From assembly GCF_035084215.1 (NCBI RefSeq), contig NC_090340.1:3534001-3598000 (forward strand): a stretch of DNA of 64,000 nt, written 5' to 3'. This stretch comes from Heptranchias perlo (Eukaryota). The notes beneath the pieces are model-generated. The model did not search any database and was not told the origin of the DNA. It was given only the letters and a program-made list of their open reading frames with translations. Shown here piece by piece: positions 1,581 through 45,267 of the stretch. How positions within the stretch are numbered: the first letter of the stretch is position 1; every line of letters begins with the position of its first letter. The position numbers and the translations under genes are program-made.

Positions 1581-2656
1581 ATTAAGACATCGCATTGTTC
1601 ATAATATTTATTTTCAGCCAGTTATTTCAAAGTAAGACAGCGTGCTACCATGAAGTGATGAATAAACTGGAATTTACAATTGATAACTTTACGTAAGTAT
1701 ACAAGTGTAATCGTTTTATACATTGCGACGGTGCACGGCCCTTTTACCTTTAGATTGAGATTGAATCTACCCCGACTGATCCTGAACGCCTCTCCAGTCT
1801 ACCTGTTGTGCAGGTGTTGGGCAAAATGTTCTTCTGCTGAGTTCCCAACGAGTGTAGGTCTACATTGTGAAATTGACATTGAATTGGTAAACAAGTTTTA
1901 AGGGCACAAGAATGGTGGGTACAGGAATTGCCAATGTCACACTTTAACAAGGCATATTTTGAGATACAATAGAAGGTGCTCTACTGTGCCACCTATATTT
2001 GCCCTGGTAAGGCATGAGTCGAACATGGGTAGCATGAATAAACAAAGTAGTTTTATTGGCCAGAACTTTTACACTTCAACTGAAAACAAAAGCTTTATTA
2101 GTGGAACGCTAAATACTTTAAACAATTGATTCACGGAATACTCAATTAAACATTACTAGCAAGGAACAACATATTGACTTTAATATTAACTGGAGATCTC
2201 TAACATAAGTCTATGCCGCTTGCTGTCCTGACATTCCACCTTTTAATAGATTTCTCACCAGACCGGAAGTCAAGAAAGCATGTCATAATGTTAATATAAA
2301 CACTTCGGAAACATTTCACTTAACCAGAAATAAACTGTAGATCAGCATCTGATAAACAAAGCTAGGTTGATGTCTGGGATGGAACGCCTCATAGGAAGCA
2401 TTGATATCAGATTGTGTTGTGGTTGTCTACTATTAACGATTTAAGTTTGAGATTGACAGAACTGAAGGTTTGGCTGTTTTTAAATGTATATGTAACAGGG
2501 ATAGAGACGGCCCGCACGGACCAGTGAAATGGTACATCCACCAGTAGCCACATTTCGCTTTTTGTTCTCTTAGATAATCCGCGGTTCTTTCCTTATTGAT
2601 TCGCTGACGCGTTTCATTCTCTTCAGGTTTCCGACTTTGATTGCAACATATGCCAT

Positions 2657-2692
2657 CTACAGCAATCTATCTTCAACCGTCTCTTTCATGGT
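2657..2692 (-). CDS. Gene A exon 6, terminal cytoplasmic exon TMKETVEDRLL-stop
   Basis: attttacag|ACC acceptor resembles the gene B last exon (atttcacag|ACC); TAG at 2657-2659. Confidence 0.6.
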   Translation of the reverse strand, partial: TMKETVEDRLL

Positions 2693-5600
2693 CTGTAAAA
2701 TTGAAGCGTTTTCCGGTTAGCTGGATTAGTCAGCAGAGTGATGCATGGAACAGAACGCGGTCGGCTGTAACTAAATTAATGTTTCAACGAATATGTCATT
2801 TGAATAAAGAATATATCATAGCAGTATATCATTATTGAAATTTCACAACTTTTATTTCTGACCGCATCGTGCTTAACATTTTCCGCCTGATCAGAGCGTC
2901 TTACAATCACCAAGAAGTGTAACAAAACACCATTACATTCCTTCGAATTCTAAAAAATCCTAGAAGCTGAAAAACAGTATAATTTTCTTCTACACTCAGT
3001 GAACAACTGCATTGTGCCCAGAATGTGTGCCTCAGACATGGGTTCAATGACACACAAAGAGGTGTTTTATCAATATTGAGAAGGAGATGCCGAAGTGAAG
3101 TCGTGCATTGGGACCTGGAGTTTGAGTTCAGCCTGTACTGATAGATGACTCTCCTTTTCTTGACCCATCTCGATCTCACTCATCATGTGGTGGTTTTCAG
3201 CGTCAAATATACAATTTATTAAAAATCGACATGGAAGAATTATTAACCTCACTCAGAGAAGCCAGCGATGAGTAGGCCGGAGAGTAGGGATGATACTTAG
3301 GGGCCAGATGTCTTGTTTTTCATCAGGTGGAGCTTTAGGCATTTTATTGAAGCCTAATAAATTAATCAGTTAATCAGTCTGTATCTAACTCTACTGCACC
3401 AGACCTCGGGGTGTTAAATGGGGGAGTGTCGACGAAGGTCTACTCTGCTCTGGGAGTGTTTGATGGGACAGTGTAGAATGAAATTTGTTCCCAATCCACC
3501 CCCTGCTGTAAATGACTGGAAATGTTTAAAGCCGGAAATGGGACTGATGGGGATTTATTGATTTTGTACAGTGGCCCCTCGTGGACATGAGCATAAACAT
3601 TTACCAACAATCTAAATGTGAAAAATACGGGATAATCGCATAAGGCAGAAATTTCAAATATGTTCAGTTTTAGATCACATTCTTTTAAGACCTCAAGCAT
3701 TTTCGAAAATGTGCGAGAGAAACATACCCGTTCTTCGAAGTGTTGAGATTCCTCTTCTTTTCTGCGTGCGCCTGGTGAAATACAACATTTATCTTTCAAC
3801 ATATATCAGGAAGTTAGGCACTGAGAGCAGGGGAATCCGACTTAGTCTCAGCCAATAAGACCTTCAGGATCGCAGCTCATGACAAGTTTTGAAAATTTAA
3901 TCGCAACGCCGCCTTCCTTTGAACAATTTTGAATTAAAGTTCCCGCAATGCATTCGGCCCATAACACAAGGAATTACTGATTGCAATCTATGAAAAGCAC
4001 CGAAAAATGCAAATAGCTGTTCTCGTTAATCATTTATTTTAAGTTCATTTGAATGACACTTGGACAAATCATCAATGTCACATCGTGGAACCAATTAAAG
4101 CTGTTCAACAAATCAACAGAATTCGATTCCTGTAGCAGTTTTAACGCGTCTTAATCAGCCTGCCGTCATATTGTTCTCTTTTTTATTACAAATGTATCAC
4201 AATGAAACTGCAGATTTGGCTCCTTACCTTTACAGTTACTGAGTTGGCAACTCTTCCCAATGACGGCGACGAGGGCTAGAAGTATCAATGCACCCACTGT
4301 ACATCCAGAAATCAGTAGGTAATGGGGGATGTGTTCATTGCCTATAATAATAATAATGTGTTAGTTGCACGATTTATGTAATCAGTGCCTCCATAATGAG
4401 ACTGTTAACTCGGGCAAGCTGATTTAGTTCTAGATATCATATATACGTTTATTGATTCTGGTTTTCCCTTCAGCAGAATCCGGCATGTGAATTGTCTGCA
4501 TTACAGGGGCAAAACATAATTTTTCGATTTTCATTGACACGACAATGATGAACTTTGAAGCTAAGAAGACTGTGGCGCAAATTGCAGCCGCATTATTCAT
4601 CCTTGGTTGATGCCTCCCGGAGACCATCAGCTGAAACAGGAATTGACTTGGATCGGCAGGGTATCAATAAAGGGAAATATTTAATTAAATGAGAAAAATA
4701 CATTCTACGTATTTCTCTCTTTATTAAAATACCAGGAATTGAATCTGATGAACATTAATATAATTCAGTTCATAATTATAATCTTTATAGATTAAAATCT
4801 TTTCCTCTGATGGAGAAATTTTACTTTTTTTCATCTGTTATACAAATCCGCAAATAGCAACAATCTTTAAATGAAAACTCTTTAAATTTATTGTCTGCCA
4901 AAAACAAAACAGACTGATGGCAAATAATCAGATTTATAGTTAACGATGGCTGCCAATATCTGTAAAAATGTCAACATTTTACCTGGGTCAGAAGTGGAAT
5001 CAAAGTAAACCGCTACGGCTGGACTCTGCAGTGTGAGGTGAGACACCACACAGGTATGTATTACCCCGCTCTGGGCTGGCTGTGTCGCTTTAAAACTGCT
5101 GGAAGCTTCATACATTCCCTCCGAATTCAGCTTTATAATGGTGGTGATTCCTGTCACAATGTTGATGTCATTTTTATACCAAGTGAAGGTGAGAGGCTCT
5201 GGATAGAACACAGCCGTCGCACACACAAGAGTTCGAGCAGATGAGTTGGTTCCGAACACTTTGGGAGACAGACTCACGGGTTCTGGGGAAGCTGTGGAGC
5301 AAGGCAGGGAATACATTGTCTCGATGTGGCGAACTTAGTCCGATTTGGCGCTCAGTCTTCTTGAATGTAACAGTGTGACTCTAGGTCACAGGTACTGAAC
5401 TAAACCACTGACTGGAACTGACCTGGATCTGCAGGGTCGCCATTTGCTTGTTGGATGGTACTATGAATCAAATTCACACTTTGGATACTGAACAATTCGA
5501 ATTAAGCTACTTCGCATAACTTTCTAGACTAAAATGCGGACGATTCACAACCGTGTTGCAGTAACAGGAGAATGTATTTCAATGCGAGTAAACATTCAGG

Positions 5601-8600: not shown

Positions 8601-9150
8601 CAACGATCGCATTTTTCTGCAAGGTCGCTTACCGTGCACAACAAGCTTCGATTCGGTTCCATTTACGATCCGGTTTCCAGTGTATCTCACTCCACAGTAA
8701 TAGAATCCGGAGTCTGGGACACGAACATTCACGATCTGGAAGGAAGCCTCTCCGTTTTCCAAAGGGAAGAATCGTTTACTGCCGTCAGAACTTGGTTTTA
8801 ATAAGTGTTTGTCGCCAAGTCTCCACCAATAAACATTCACATCTGAATTATCATGGACGGAGCTCGTCAGGCATTTGAAAGTAACGTCTGCACCTGAAAT
8901 CACACTGGTGATTTCAGGGGTTTGGAAAACTTCAGCGGGAGCAACTATAAAACAGTCAAAAAACATTAATTTCAAAATAGGGATAAATCATATTTAGGCA
9001 CGGATAGATAAATTGATCGCCAAATAAAGAGATAGATGGATAAATAGATAGAGATAGTATATAGATCGAAGAAAGAAAGAATGGTCCATTATAGCAGAGA
9101 ATACCTTTGTAAATAATCCCTAGCACCCATATGTACTGACACACAAACAT
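2657..9150 (-). CDS. Gene A: non-rearranging VJ-C1-TM Ig-superfamily receptor (SIRP/NKp30-like), 6 exons, 286 aa, short tail without tyrosine motif
   Basis: Exons 9150-9105, 8944-8633, 5291-4983, 4341-4228, 3771-3728, 2692-2657 have AG/GT borders and matching phases (1,1,1,1,0). They sum to 861 nt (286 aa + stop). Exon sizes are mirrored by gene B. Confidence 0.85.
3728..3771 (-). CDS. Gene A exon 5, 44-bp cytoplasmic exon (GARRKEEESQHFEER)
   Basis: tttcaccag| ... CGG|gtatgt; same 44-bp length and phases as gene B exon 5. Confidence 0.8.
4228..4341 (-). CDS. Gene A exon 4, transmembrane (YLLISGCTVGALILLALVAVIG-KSCQLSNCK)
   Basis: Not in the ORF track; ttattatag| acceptor, hydrophobic helix, donor AAG|gtaagg; homologous to the gene B TM exon. 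Confidence 0.88.
4983..5291 (-). CDS. Gene A exon 3, C1-set Ig domain
   Basis: ctccacag| acceptor; LVCATAVFYPEPLTFTWYKN...YEASS...TCVVSH C1 motifs; donor G|gtaaaa; 309 bp. Confidence 0.92.
5722..7076 (+). mobile_element. 5'-truncated, relatively young CR1 LINE in gene A intron 2
   Basis: Three consecutive same-frame ORFs (GVPQGSVLGP, KFADDTK) separated by single stops; 3' UTR ends in an ATGTTCT-type repeat. Confidence 0.95.
7190..7790 (+). mobile_element. CR1 3' fragment
   Basis: YKSMVRLQLVYCVQF...ERLEKLGLFSL; ends in gattctatga. Confidence 0.85.
8017..8046. repeat. (TA)n microsatellite
   Basis: Direct reading; one interruption. Confidence 0.9.
8633..8944 (-). CDS. Gene A exon 2, V-set Ig domain with germline J-like G strand
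   Basis: ttttatag| acceptor; VTFKC...VYWW...DSGFYYC...NGTESKLVVH; donor G|gtaagc. Confidence 0.92.
9003..9066. repeat. Degenerate (GATA)n tract in gene A intron 1
   Basis: gatagata...gatagatggataaatagatagagatag. Confidence 0.6.
9105..9150 (-). CDS. Gene A exon 1, signal peptide MFVCQYIWVLGIIYK(V)
   Basis: ATG at 9150, hydrophobic stretch, phase-1 donor AAG|gtattc; homologous to the gene B leader (VLQCISVLGIIFT). Confidence 0.75.
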
Positions 9151-9635
9151 TGTACAATGGATATTGATCAGCCAATGAACCACGGCTCTAATGGTTTGTA
9201 AGTATCTGTAGATAATGCGATCTGATTTGTGATGTGATGAGGTGTCGTATCATGTGCCTAAACCTGCTTTCGATAAGCTATTTTAAGTGGCGAGATGTGA
9301 ATGCAAATGTCATTTAATATGCATGAGAACCTGACCTCAACAGAAACTGTAATCTGAAGTTAAACCAAAGCCTCTCTGGTTGGCCTGTATGCGATTTATC
9401 TCACTGACGTATGATTAAGCAAGTAACAGGTTCTCGACACGTTGATGAAATTCACTGACTTCCTAGAAGCAGTTCATATTATACAGAAGATGTCGAAAGG
9501 AAGGGATGTGGGTGGTCGGATTGCCAATAAGCGAAAGTCGGAAAGCTTCAGCAAGAAGACAATTTGTGCTGAGTCTGGTCCAAGTGACCCTGCCCCAAAC
9601 CCGTCAGTATTTCCTCCCTCGGTCTGTATTATCCA

Positions 9636-29416: not shown

Positions 29417-29584
29417 TTAATTGACTTTCCGTTCCGTGTAAATAACGTCTGATCTTTGGTTTTTCATCCGTAGCTGAGCGTATTCCGTGTTCTTATTCTT
29501 ATGAATAGGCTTTGCAGTCTTCTTGGAGCCAGTCATAACTAGTGAAGCATAGGTCAGCTTGTTCTCAGGTGCCCTTTGCTTGGT
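29417..29584 (-). pseudogene. Gene B exon 7, terminal tail exon with ITIM LTYASL and TEYAQL
   Basis: atttcacag| then TKQRAPENKLTYASLVMTGSKKTAKPIHKNKNTEYAQLRMKNQRSDVIYTERKVN-TAA. Confidence 0.85.
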
Positions 29585-34991: not shown

Positions 34992-35035
34992 CGGCTGTTC
35001 GCGATGGCCTGATCTTTCAGCATCGTTCTGAGGTC
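34992..35035 (-). pseudogene. Gene B exon 5, 44-bp cytoplasmic exon (GPQNDAERSGHREQP)
   Basis: cattaccag| ... CCG|gtaagt; length and phases identical to gene A exon 5. Confidence 0.8.
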
Positions 35036-42900: not shown

Positions 42901-42986
42901 CAACCTCTGTAGGCAAGCTTAGGACGTTCTCGCTCTCTCTTTGAAAGTTGTGTTCACTTTGTTAAAAAGACTAAATGATTTCTTAA

Positions 42987-43097
42987 CTTTATTTTTCTTT
43001 GAGAGACATCGCTTTCCAATGATGAGAGCCAACGCCAGGAATATCAATCCGCCCGCTGCACATGCTGAAATCAGCAAGTAACCGGTGAACTCACCAC
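42987..43097 (-). pseudogene. Gene B exon 4, transmembrane (YLLISACAAGGLIFLALALIIG-KRCLSKKNK), mutated donor
   Basis: cttgtag| acceptor; ends AAAG|ttaaga where gene A has AAAG|gtaagg. Confidence 0.85.
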
Positions 43098-43702
43098 CTA
43101 CAAGATTTAGGTGAAATGTACAAATATGAAGCAGTGCACTGTTCAATTGAACAATATCATGACTTAAAAGGTCAGCAACATTTTAATCAATTGTTGCTAT
43201 TTTAGTAATGTTATATTTAAGGTATAGTTTTATGAAACAAAATACAAAATGCAGAGCTATGTTTTTTTTCATGCGTGAGGAACACATTACTGTTATATTA
43301 TCTTGCTTGAAACTCAAATCTGATTGAAATAAGTTTGCGATATAAATGTGATAATGATTAATTTGTTACTTGTTATGACGGCTAACAGTAGTTGCTAAAA
43401 TTGCAGCATGCTGCAGATTTCGAGCAAGGTTTGAAGAATGCAGCAGGCAGCGGTCCCGCCTCTCGGCGTAACGACTTGGAACTGCAGGACGCGAGTTACT
43501 GCTCGATGTTGTCCCAGGCGTCAGTTCCATGTCTCGACCGTGACTCCCACTGAGGCAAGGGGTGCCGAACAACGTTGGCTTTGGAGCTGAACACCTGGCA
43601 GAAATCCATGGATAATTATATTTGCTCTTAGCAAACAAATGATGGGGGAGGCATCTCAGAAAATAGTTTTACTTGCAGGATAACTGAGATCTGCAATCTT
43701 AC

Positions 43703-44011
43703 CTGTTGGGTAGAGGAAAATGTGAGTGGCTATGGCAGGAGTTTCGATGGTATTGTGAGACACCAGGCAGGTATACACAGTCCCGGTTCGGACAGGCTGC
43801 GTCTCTTCCAAACGGCTGGAAGCTTCATATAGTCCATCGGTTTTGAGTTGAATAATGCTATTTATCCCTGGTGTAGTTTTAGTCAAATTTTTATACCAAG
43901 TGAAGGTGATATTCTCCGGGTAAAACGGATTTGTCGCACACACAACAGTTAGAGACGAAGATGAATCCTTTCCAGGTTCCCGAGAGATAATTTTCAGTGG
44001 AGTTGGCGGAA
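43703..44011 (-). pseudogene. Gene B exon 3, C1-set Ig domain
   Basis: tttttctag| acceptor; VVCATNPFYPENITFTWYKN...YTCLVSH; donor G|gtaaga; 309 bp as in gene A. Confidence 0.92.
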
Positions 44012-44946
44012 CTAGAAAAATGGAGGAAAATAACGTTACTGGGGCATCATTCAAGGTTATCAACATGTCGTTTTGTTTCGGCCCATTACTGACAGCACAA
44101 AGAGGGAGTTGTTCACTGTGTGTTATCCGTAGCGACATCGTTAACGGCATCTTCATAAATGTTAACTTTATATCGGGGGTAATTTAAACTTTTATCGTAG
44201 GGCGAAAAACGGGTCCAACTGATGGGAAAAATATCGAGCGGGTTCTAAAAAGGGCGGCCGATTCACTATCGCCTGTTTTGCGCTCACCGCCGAAGCCCAT
44301 ATTCACTCTCAAGTATAATAACTGACAAGAAAGTACAATTGAACAAACGCGAGGGGCTTTGGCACACAAGTTCTGGGTGATATCTTATTTACTGAAGTGT
44401 GAAAGGATGATGAAAATGTGGAGTTTGTGGTCAGGTAAGTTTTCGGAATTTAACTGTTAATAACATCGGAGTTGCAAGCATCTTAACATATAGACCATTA
44501 AATTATAAACGCGGGAAGCTGAATTTTAATAGAAACTGTCAGCCCTCCTTAACCAACGCAAACAGAATAAACCATCATACAGGGTAAGATCCGTGCTTAC
44601 CGGGCAAATGCGCGCTCGTGTGCAATTCAGTCGAGACACATCCTTTAATCAGCAATTTTACCTTCACATGCTGAATGTGCACTTTGAGGTAAAATGATTA
44701 ACTCCTGTTAATGAATATTGGTGAAATATATATCATTCTACCGGATAATTGGAATGCATACAAAAATACAACGATTGTTATTTGAGTTTCAATGTGAATC
44801 CTTCAAAGCACAACCGACAAATGCGTATACAAGTGTGAAACAGTGTAGAATGTAAACAATACTAAAGCATGATTCATGCGCTGGATAAATCTGCTGTGAA
44901 ATGTTACGGTCAGGTTGATCTTCTTCGCCGCTATTGTTAAACTTAC

Positions 44947-45267
44947 CCCATACAGTTAAATTGGATCCCCTTCCGTTTCCAACTAGACTCCCTTGATGGG
45001 AGATAGTACAATAGTATACTCCCGAGTCCTTTACACTCACATTGAGTAGCTGAAGGAAGCCGCTGAACTAAGTTCTGAAGCCAGTTAATTTTCTGTCATC
45101 CAGCCCTGTACTTAGATATTCATTGTCACCCTGTTTCCACCAGTTCACCTTCACACGTGGGCCATATCGAAAGAAGGAAATCGAGCAATGAAAGGAGACG
45201 TTTGCACCCGTATTTCTGCTCACGGTTTCGGGGAGTTGAGTCAATTTGACCAAAGTTTCAGCGGAGC
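44947..45267 (-). pseudogene. Gene B exon 2, VJ-type V domain with in-frame stop
   Basis: ORFs 45068-45283 and 44789-45040 are one frame separated by TAG; VSFHC...NWW...DSGVYYC...[11 protein letters not shown]; donor G|gtaagt. Confidence 0.92.

Follow-up and report, generated by a model that had tools for sequence, protein, structure and literature searches.

NSFL1C is a synteny neighbour of the SIRP genes, and ITIMs follow the consensus S/I/V/L-x-Y-x-x-I/V/L. The SIRP family combines a V and C1 ectodomain with ITIM-bearing, charged-transmembrane (TM) and signal-null members, and its member SIRP-gamma, with a V and two C1 domains, has a tail of four residues without a motif, does not bind DAP12 and is regarded as a decoy or adhesion receptor (PMC12975943). 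A second set of described genes, UrIg, UrIg2, NKp30 and PRARP, encodes non-rearranging, germline-joined V domains with GxG; UrIg2 has the layout V-C1-C2-C3 and belongs to an antigen-receptor complex, and UrIg and NKp30 are MHC genes (PMC12227049, PMC10751288, PMC11599192).

We analysed a window of 64,000 nt from the shark Heptranchias perlo (NC_090340.1, positions 3,534,001 to 3,598,000), in which two members of a receptor family, gene A and gene B, lie on the minus strand (Table 1). The shark family resembles the SIRP family in its V and C1 ectodomain and its classes of members, and gene A resembles SIRP-gamma in its short tail without motifs, whereas that tail has 36 residues, not 4, and the ectodomain one C1 domain, not two (PMC12975943). 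Gene A also shows low ectodomain identity to its ITIM-bearing siblings; the comparison with SIRP-gamma made in the initial annotation holds as an analogy only, the ectodomain differing from the three-domain SIRP architecture. Like UrIg, UrIg2, NKp30 and PRARP, gene A has a non-rearranging, germline-joined V domain, but it differs from UrIg2 in domain number and from UrIg and NKp30 in belonging to a large cluster of ITIM and TM-Arg genes (PMC12227049, PMC10751288, PMC11599192). Our literature search, with subscription papers and supplements mostly beyond its reach (genome-paper supplements may list the genes), returned no paper describing the shark family or the clade of gene A.

Layout of gene A and the receptor cluster

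The gene A ORF is intact from the leader through V, C1, TM and the first cytoplasmic exon (cy1) to the last exon, all introns are GT-AG, and the product has 286 aa. Pfam detected one V-set (E 2.6e-10) and one C1-set domain (E 3.9e-09). The V segment and a J-like G strand share one exon that ends in NGT(G/E)SKLVV, with NGTES in the window copy and NGTGS or NGNGS in its copies A3, A0' and A0. The AlphaFold model had a pLDDT of 62, and the fold search returned only generic V-C1 matches, with UrIg2 as the first fold match and the second-best PDB sequence match. The tail contains no tyrosine and the TM core no K, R, D or E, which agrees with the initial annotation, where the ORF had been described as otherwise intact and the TM as free of a charged residue for an adaptor. 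Its reading of the minus strand from 2692 onward, TMKETVEDRLL*MAYVAI, was also exact; since splicing occurs at 2692 and the stop precedes YVAI, the product contains no ITIM.

Table 1. Features of genes A and B in the window (positions within the 64,000 nt)
Feature	Positions	Strand	Evidence
Gene A exon 1, 5' UTR and leader, ATG at 9150	9105..9282	-	spliced X1 contig over 9105-9282; GT donor; ORF
Gene A V-set exon	8633..8944	-	Pfam V-set; contig; translation
Gene A C1-set exon	4983..5291	-	Pfam C1-set; contig
Gene A TM exon, TM core uncharged	4228..4341	-	sequence; contig
Gene A first cytoplasmic exon cy1, 44 nt	3728..3771	-	3' end is the loose end of contigs stopping at 2693
Gene A last exon, coding part, 11 codons and TAG (2659-2657)	2657..2692	-	sequence; junction in X1 and X2 contigs
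Probable 10-nt deletion, approximate site	2660..2672	-	profile shift test; pairwise alignments
Remnant of old ITIM exon, now 3' UTR; old frame is the shifted frame	2550..2656	-	register comparison
Two AATAAA candidates, at 2099 and 2057	2052..2099	-	sequence; candidate signals only
Gene B last exon, LTYASL and TEYAQL, comparison exon; starts TKQRAPENKLTYASL at 29584	29417..29584	-	
Gene B putative cy1 exon, same length as in gene A (44 nt)	34992..35035	-	read from sequence
Gene B TM exon; donor region differs from that of the copies	42985..43098	-	L106 vs L105, L110
Gene B C1 exon	43702..44012	-	
Gene B V exon, in-frame TAG at 45070-45068	44946..45262	-	

A leader for gene A at about 12.7 kb was dropped, as a contig placed exon 1 at 9282-9105. 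Upstream of exon 1, at a distance of about 3.5 kb, segment 12690-12860 is 77-99% conserved in the copies A2, A3 and A0 and had no contig coverage; it is possibly regulatory, or was simply duplicated along with the rest of the unit. Another YVAI, at 19504 (RLTYVAI followed by a stop, 19530-19490), was set aside as a chance occurrence in a SINE-like end, which we take the region to be.

The cluster is large and volatile, with 86 V matches, many of them broken, of which 85 lie on the contig of the window (C18), and 115 C1 matches. Inhibitory, activating and signal-null members with related ectodomains were all found, in the form of ITIM tails, short tails with a TM Arg and the uncharged A clade; some ITIM and TM-Arg members are near-identical in the ectodomain, and A has no such twin. 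No marker gene was detected in 190 kb of flank, where 84 of 238 candidate ORFs were scanned and one weak retro-element match was obtained. SEP-domain matches, sought as a marker of NSFL1C synteny and representing domain matches and not named genes, occurred on contigs C22 and C3 and not on C18.

Further observations concern the cluster at large. A block of about 800 kb is repeated on C18 (about 3.45-3.92 Mb versus 4.25-4.75 Mb, and 5.07-5.22 Mb); around gene A the first two blocks are 1.3% apart, and the repeat is therefore a recent segmental duplication or an uncollapsed haplotype. The TAG in the gene B V exon recurs in the copy at C18:4373376, and the V exon is open in the copy at C18:5190920. 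A B-type paralog with an Arg at the TM start (C18:2727820-2727921) adjoins A0'; a B-type last exon belonging to this paralog was not found. The tail exon seems to be duplicated in some family members, as tyrosine-motif exon matches are paired about 240 nt apart at C18:5616360-5616719, 5577658-5578020, 5694121-5694486, 3930022-3930383 and 4767096-4767456.

Register of the last exon

The initial annotation had placed the gene A stop on the ITIM tyrosine and, at the same time, had treated 9 nt before YVAI as an insertion; each claim calls for an alignment of its own, and only one of them could be true. Among 52 family last-exon matches, 30 loci were fetched and three were set aside for indels or offset, leaving 27 exons, all of which carry Tyr at codon 12. 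The gene A TAG occupies codon 12 of its last exon, and the Tyr codon of YVAI lies at 2650-2648. A family DNA profile search was significant in 7 of the 8 A-type last exons, which establishes that the exons are homologous; in six of these seven the match covered just the acceptor and the first 8-9 codons. The whole-exon family profile mostly aligned the exon start, and the register cannot be placed from the profile alone.

We tested the register with a position matrix built from 17 non-redundant family exons. Codons 1-9 fell at shift 0 in five of the six distinct A copies, whereas family codons 14-27 fitted best at shift -10 in gene A, L003, L005 and L006. In L004, which has a 5-nt deletion of its own, these codons fitted best at -15, and in L008, with its own 3-nt deletion, -13 ranked second for codons 14-27 and first for codons 14-31. 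In gene A, codons 14-27 scored +2.1 bits at -10, -24.8 at +9 and -35.5 at 0, and identities were 35/56 with a 10-nt deletion, 24/66 with a 9-nt insertion and 19/66 in a colinear alignment. The observed score was reached by 5 of 1000 shuffles for gene A, 0 for L004, 1 for L005 and 0 for L006. A net offset of -10 was modal for gene A, though in only 8 of 17 pairwise alignments (any other offset at most 4); MAFFT placed the 10-nt gap further downstream, and in its alignment the second tyrosine motif region is also about 22 nt shorter. In the shifted frame the exon is again family-like, and in A0 it ends at the family stop position; this old stop position (2552-2550) reads TGT in gene A and TAA in A0.

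Some observations favour the earlier account, in which the stop is either the ITIM Tyr codon changed to TAG or the result of a 9-nt insertion before YVAI: the TAG does sit at codon 12, and the LTYA block alone (4 codons) fitted best at +9 in gene A (+4.9 bits), L003, L005 and L006. Both the colinear and the inserted alignments are nevertheless inferior by identities and by the score of codons 14-27. The segment with the 9 nt is present in seven of the eight A copies and 3 nt shorter in the eighth, and therefore is not an insertion; no A-type copy among the eight lacks exactly the 9 nt. The YVAI Tyr codon TAT occurs only in A1 (the window copy), A2 and A3, the other copies having TTG, TAG or CAG. 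We regard this account as highly improbable. What stands of it is the position; judged by the register of the downstream codons, the match of the TAG to the ITIM Tyr codon is positional and not homologous.

The ITIM was most likely lost through a frameshifting deletion of about 10 nt, as the register comparison indicates, most parsimoniously near 2664/2663, with an uncertainty of several bases in the breakpoints. At codons 15-16 the family usually has Leu-Asp/Glu/Ala, and nt 44-46 form an out-of-frame TAG (CTA GAT) in 14 of 27 intact exons. The deletion would have removed family codons 10-13 and, by taking out 10 nt upstream, would have brought the out-of-frame TAG of Leu15-Asp16 (nt 44-46) into the former Tyr position, nt 34-36. 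A plausible cause is slippage between a pair of GCT triplets, which border the lost segment on both sides in 6 of 28 family exons, more often than any other combination. The stop at the tyrosine position is a coincidence of the deletion, and no targeting of the tyrosine is needed. Codon 12 of the eight A-type exons is TAG in one lineage and TGG or TCG in the other, so that the root of the A copies may have carried either state.

Maintenance and transcription of the A-type copies

The eight A-type last exons belong to repeated units, in which each is located downstream of a V exon of B type, and the 10-nt deletion is common to all eight, which are up to about 20% diverged (noncoding divergence of A1 from A0 or A0', 0.19-0.21). 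The loss of the ITIM from gene A is real and old. ORFs are intact in A1, A3, A0 and A0'; four of the eight copies are broken, three of them without V and with a frameshifted TM. The copy nearest to A1, A2 (noncoding divergence 1.3%), has a last exon identical to that of A1, but its ATG is changed, its leader lacks 2 nt and its C1 acceptor is damaged; it is likely a pseudogene.

Over the tree of the four intact copies, noncoding indels occurred at about 20 per kb, which predicts 16.5 in 825 coding bases, and just one, an in-frame insertion, was seen (P 1.2e-6), a deficit that is inflated by the restriction to intact copies. The A0-A0' comparison showed four coding indels over 700 nt, which we ascribe to a degenerate extra C1 copy in A0' because the exon lengths agree; this extra copy, with stops, lies inside the V-C1 intron of A0' (L050:4031-4242). 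Over V-C1-TM-cy1, dN/dS was 0.30-0.77 in 10 pairs, with 0.61-0.77 in A0 pairs and 0.30 in A1-A3 (P 0.002). dN was below dS at P<0.05 in four of the five pairs tested, A1-A0 being not significant (P 0.11), and TM-cy1 alone exceeded 1 in 4 of 10 pairs. The last exon is not maintained after codon 4, with a stop at codon 7 in A0 (5-nt deletion) and at codon 9 in A0'. The pattern of the copies is that of a maintained ectodomain and a dispensable tail, and by these substitution and indel counts the ORF has been under purifying selection after the deletion.

Transcript evidence came from three runs (X1, X2 and X3) of one sample, whose RNA status is a guess; only contigs joining exons across GT-AG introns were counted as transcripts. 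In one contig, exon 1 and the V, C1 and TM exons were joined exactly where the gene model predicts. X1 and X2 contigs stopped at 2693 with the cy1 end as a loose end, which corresponds to the 3728-2692 junction proposed in the initial annotation, and they matched paralogs, mainly A3: the X1 junction contig carried four differences over 2607-2693, as in A3, and none of A3's differences lies in the TAG. Contigs of lower depth matched A0, also spliced from cy1, and A0'. Neither of the two outcomes named beforehand as contradicting the early reading, another terminal exon and splicing at 2656, was seen; contigs splice to 2692, and none showed the hypothetical junction at 2656, which would read M-A-Y-V-A-I (contigs can miss rare forms). 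The RefSeq model of A3, XP_067853498, ends at the same stop. An mRNA with its stop in the last exon escapes nonsense-mediated decay, and the gene A mRNA, whose stop is so placed, should do the same.

X3 yielded no contig in the 2330-2900 region. None of six contigs matched the window copy at >=99% over 2330-2900, and as contigs drop variants this count is silent on A1 expression. A1 could be a silent or decaying recent duplicate, with A3 (together with A0 and A0') as the only working gene. In keeping with this, its nearest copy A2 lacks the ATG and the C1 acceptor, the neighbouring gene B has a stop in V, and A1 itself has Glu for Gly in the J-like motif. Its intact ORF and splice sites and the low A1-A3 dN/dS argue the other way, and we give this reading limited credence; it would in any case touch one copy and not the clade.

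The A clade in other sharks and rays

Proteins of Heterodontus (2 genes), Scyliorhinus, Mustelus and Pristis were 59-70% identical to A3 and the Leucoraja protein 51%; a search of proteins clustered at 50% returned no relative closer than P0008. We built a V-C1 tree of 59 rows, leaving out 12 proteins without the full V-C1 span and 8 isoforms or duplicates. One clade (support 100/100) united six genes from five other shark and ray species with the five full copies of H. perlo; its 11 rows follow the species split, with rays apart from sharks. The shark-ray split is about 270-300 million years old. The RefSeq models of the clade (XP_067853498, XP_067906082, XP_067906088, XP_038662043, XP_078066430 and XP_051884567) bear automatic and inconsistent names, namely NCR3LG1-like, SIRP-like, tapasin-related-like and Ig-lambda-like.

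Short predicted tails without a tyrosine motif occurred in all six A-clade genes of the other species. Tyrosine tails were seen by eye in just 32 of 65 non-A rows, short or partial models being common, and the six short tails, as predicted models, are suggestive and not proof. The Pristis (sawfish) tail DHERKS matches the cy1-skipped reading of gene A, DHERDG, which suggests, by sequence likeness, that the same last exon is still present there. Early decay, one of the fates first considered for gene A, is unlikely in view of the lesion shared by eight copies, the later purifying selection and the orthologs with short predicted tails in five species.

Gene A has a tail without a signalling motif, and a charged TM residue was absent from all intact A copies of H. 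perlo and from five of the six genes of other species. The Mustelus ortholog is the sole A-clade member with a TM Lys, where activating relatives have Arg. An A3-like contig covers 2924-3757, mostly intron, at a depth of 65.7, and reading through cy1 into this intron (3727-3443) leaves 95 more codons open in A1, A2 and A3, with several tyrosines. The Lys, this contig and the open frame would fit a gene A that signals via an adaptor or partner chain on a small-residue TM face, or through an alternative tail from cy1 read-through. Given the uncharged TM elsewhere in the clade, and a read-through frame that is only 13 codons long in A0 and A0' and contains no canonical ITIM, we consider such signalling unlikely.

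The V domain of A is 36% identical to that of B and about 51-54% to those of the closest other non-A paralogs, which makes a ligand shared by A and an inhibitory sibling doubtful on sequence grounds. Of the non-signalling or decoy form first proposed, the absence of both ITIM and TM charge stands; a decoy for B is doubtful, since their V domains are so dissimilar and B in the window is itself broken. A related possibility is that A is a decoy for a pathogen protein aimed at its ITIM-bearing siblings, for which the large, volatile cluster and the near-identical inhibitory and Arg-TM pairs in the family could speak. The identity of the A protein to orthologs in distant species (59-70%) exceeds the V-domain identity to siblings, and a conserved host partner therefore fits better than a pathogen decoy, which we hold to be quite unlikely. 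Since A has no near-identical ITIM or Arg twin, its sequence likewise speaks for a binder of a conserved host partner, with a role in adhesion or ligand buffering, and less for a decoy of B.

We consider it probable that A is a V-C1-TM protein whose ITIM was erased by the old 10-nt frameshift deletion and which serves at the cell surface to bind a conserved partner without signalling. The protein has neither a motif that SHP-1/2 could use nor a charge suited to an ITAM adaptor. Its V domain would putatively bind a host ligand, for adhesion or to soak up the ligand, and such uptake might tune the signals of its inhibitory and activating relatives. A broader reading, which we offer tentatively, is that sharks and rays, independently of mammalian SIRPs, built a trio of inhibitory, activating and signal-null receptors on an antigen-receptor-like VJ-C1 scaffold; the signal-null member would be one ortholog, produced by a single 10-nt deletion before the shark-ray split and since kept as a ligand buffer for its ITIM siblings.

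As a coincidence of a deletion, the stop on the tyrosine is of little interest, and the principle of a signal-null member is already known from SIRP-gamma; the remaining point is the conservation of a third class within a large receptor cluster of sharks and rays. The A clade is likely such a signal-null class, a long-kept member of an on/off receptor family. A tail-less lineage kept across sharks and rays in a family of fast turnover is good bait for the family ligand, and a conserved A clade would show that signal-null members of paired-receptor families are old and arose more than once.
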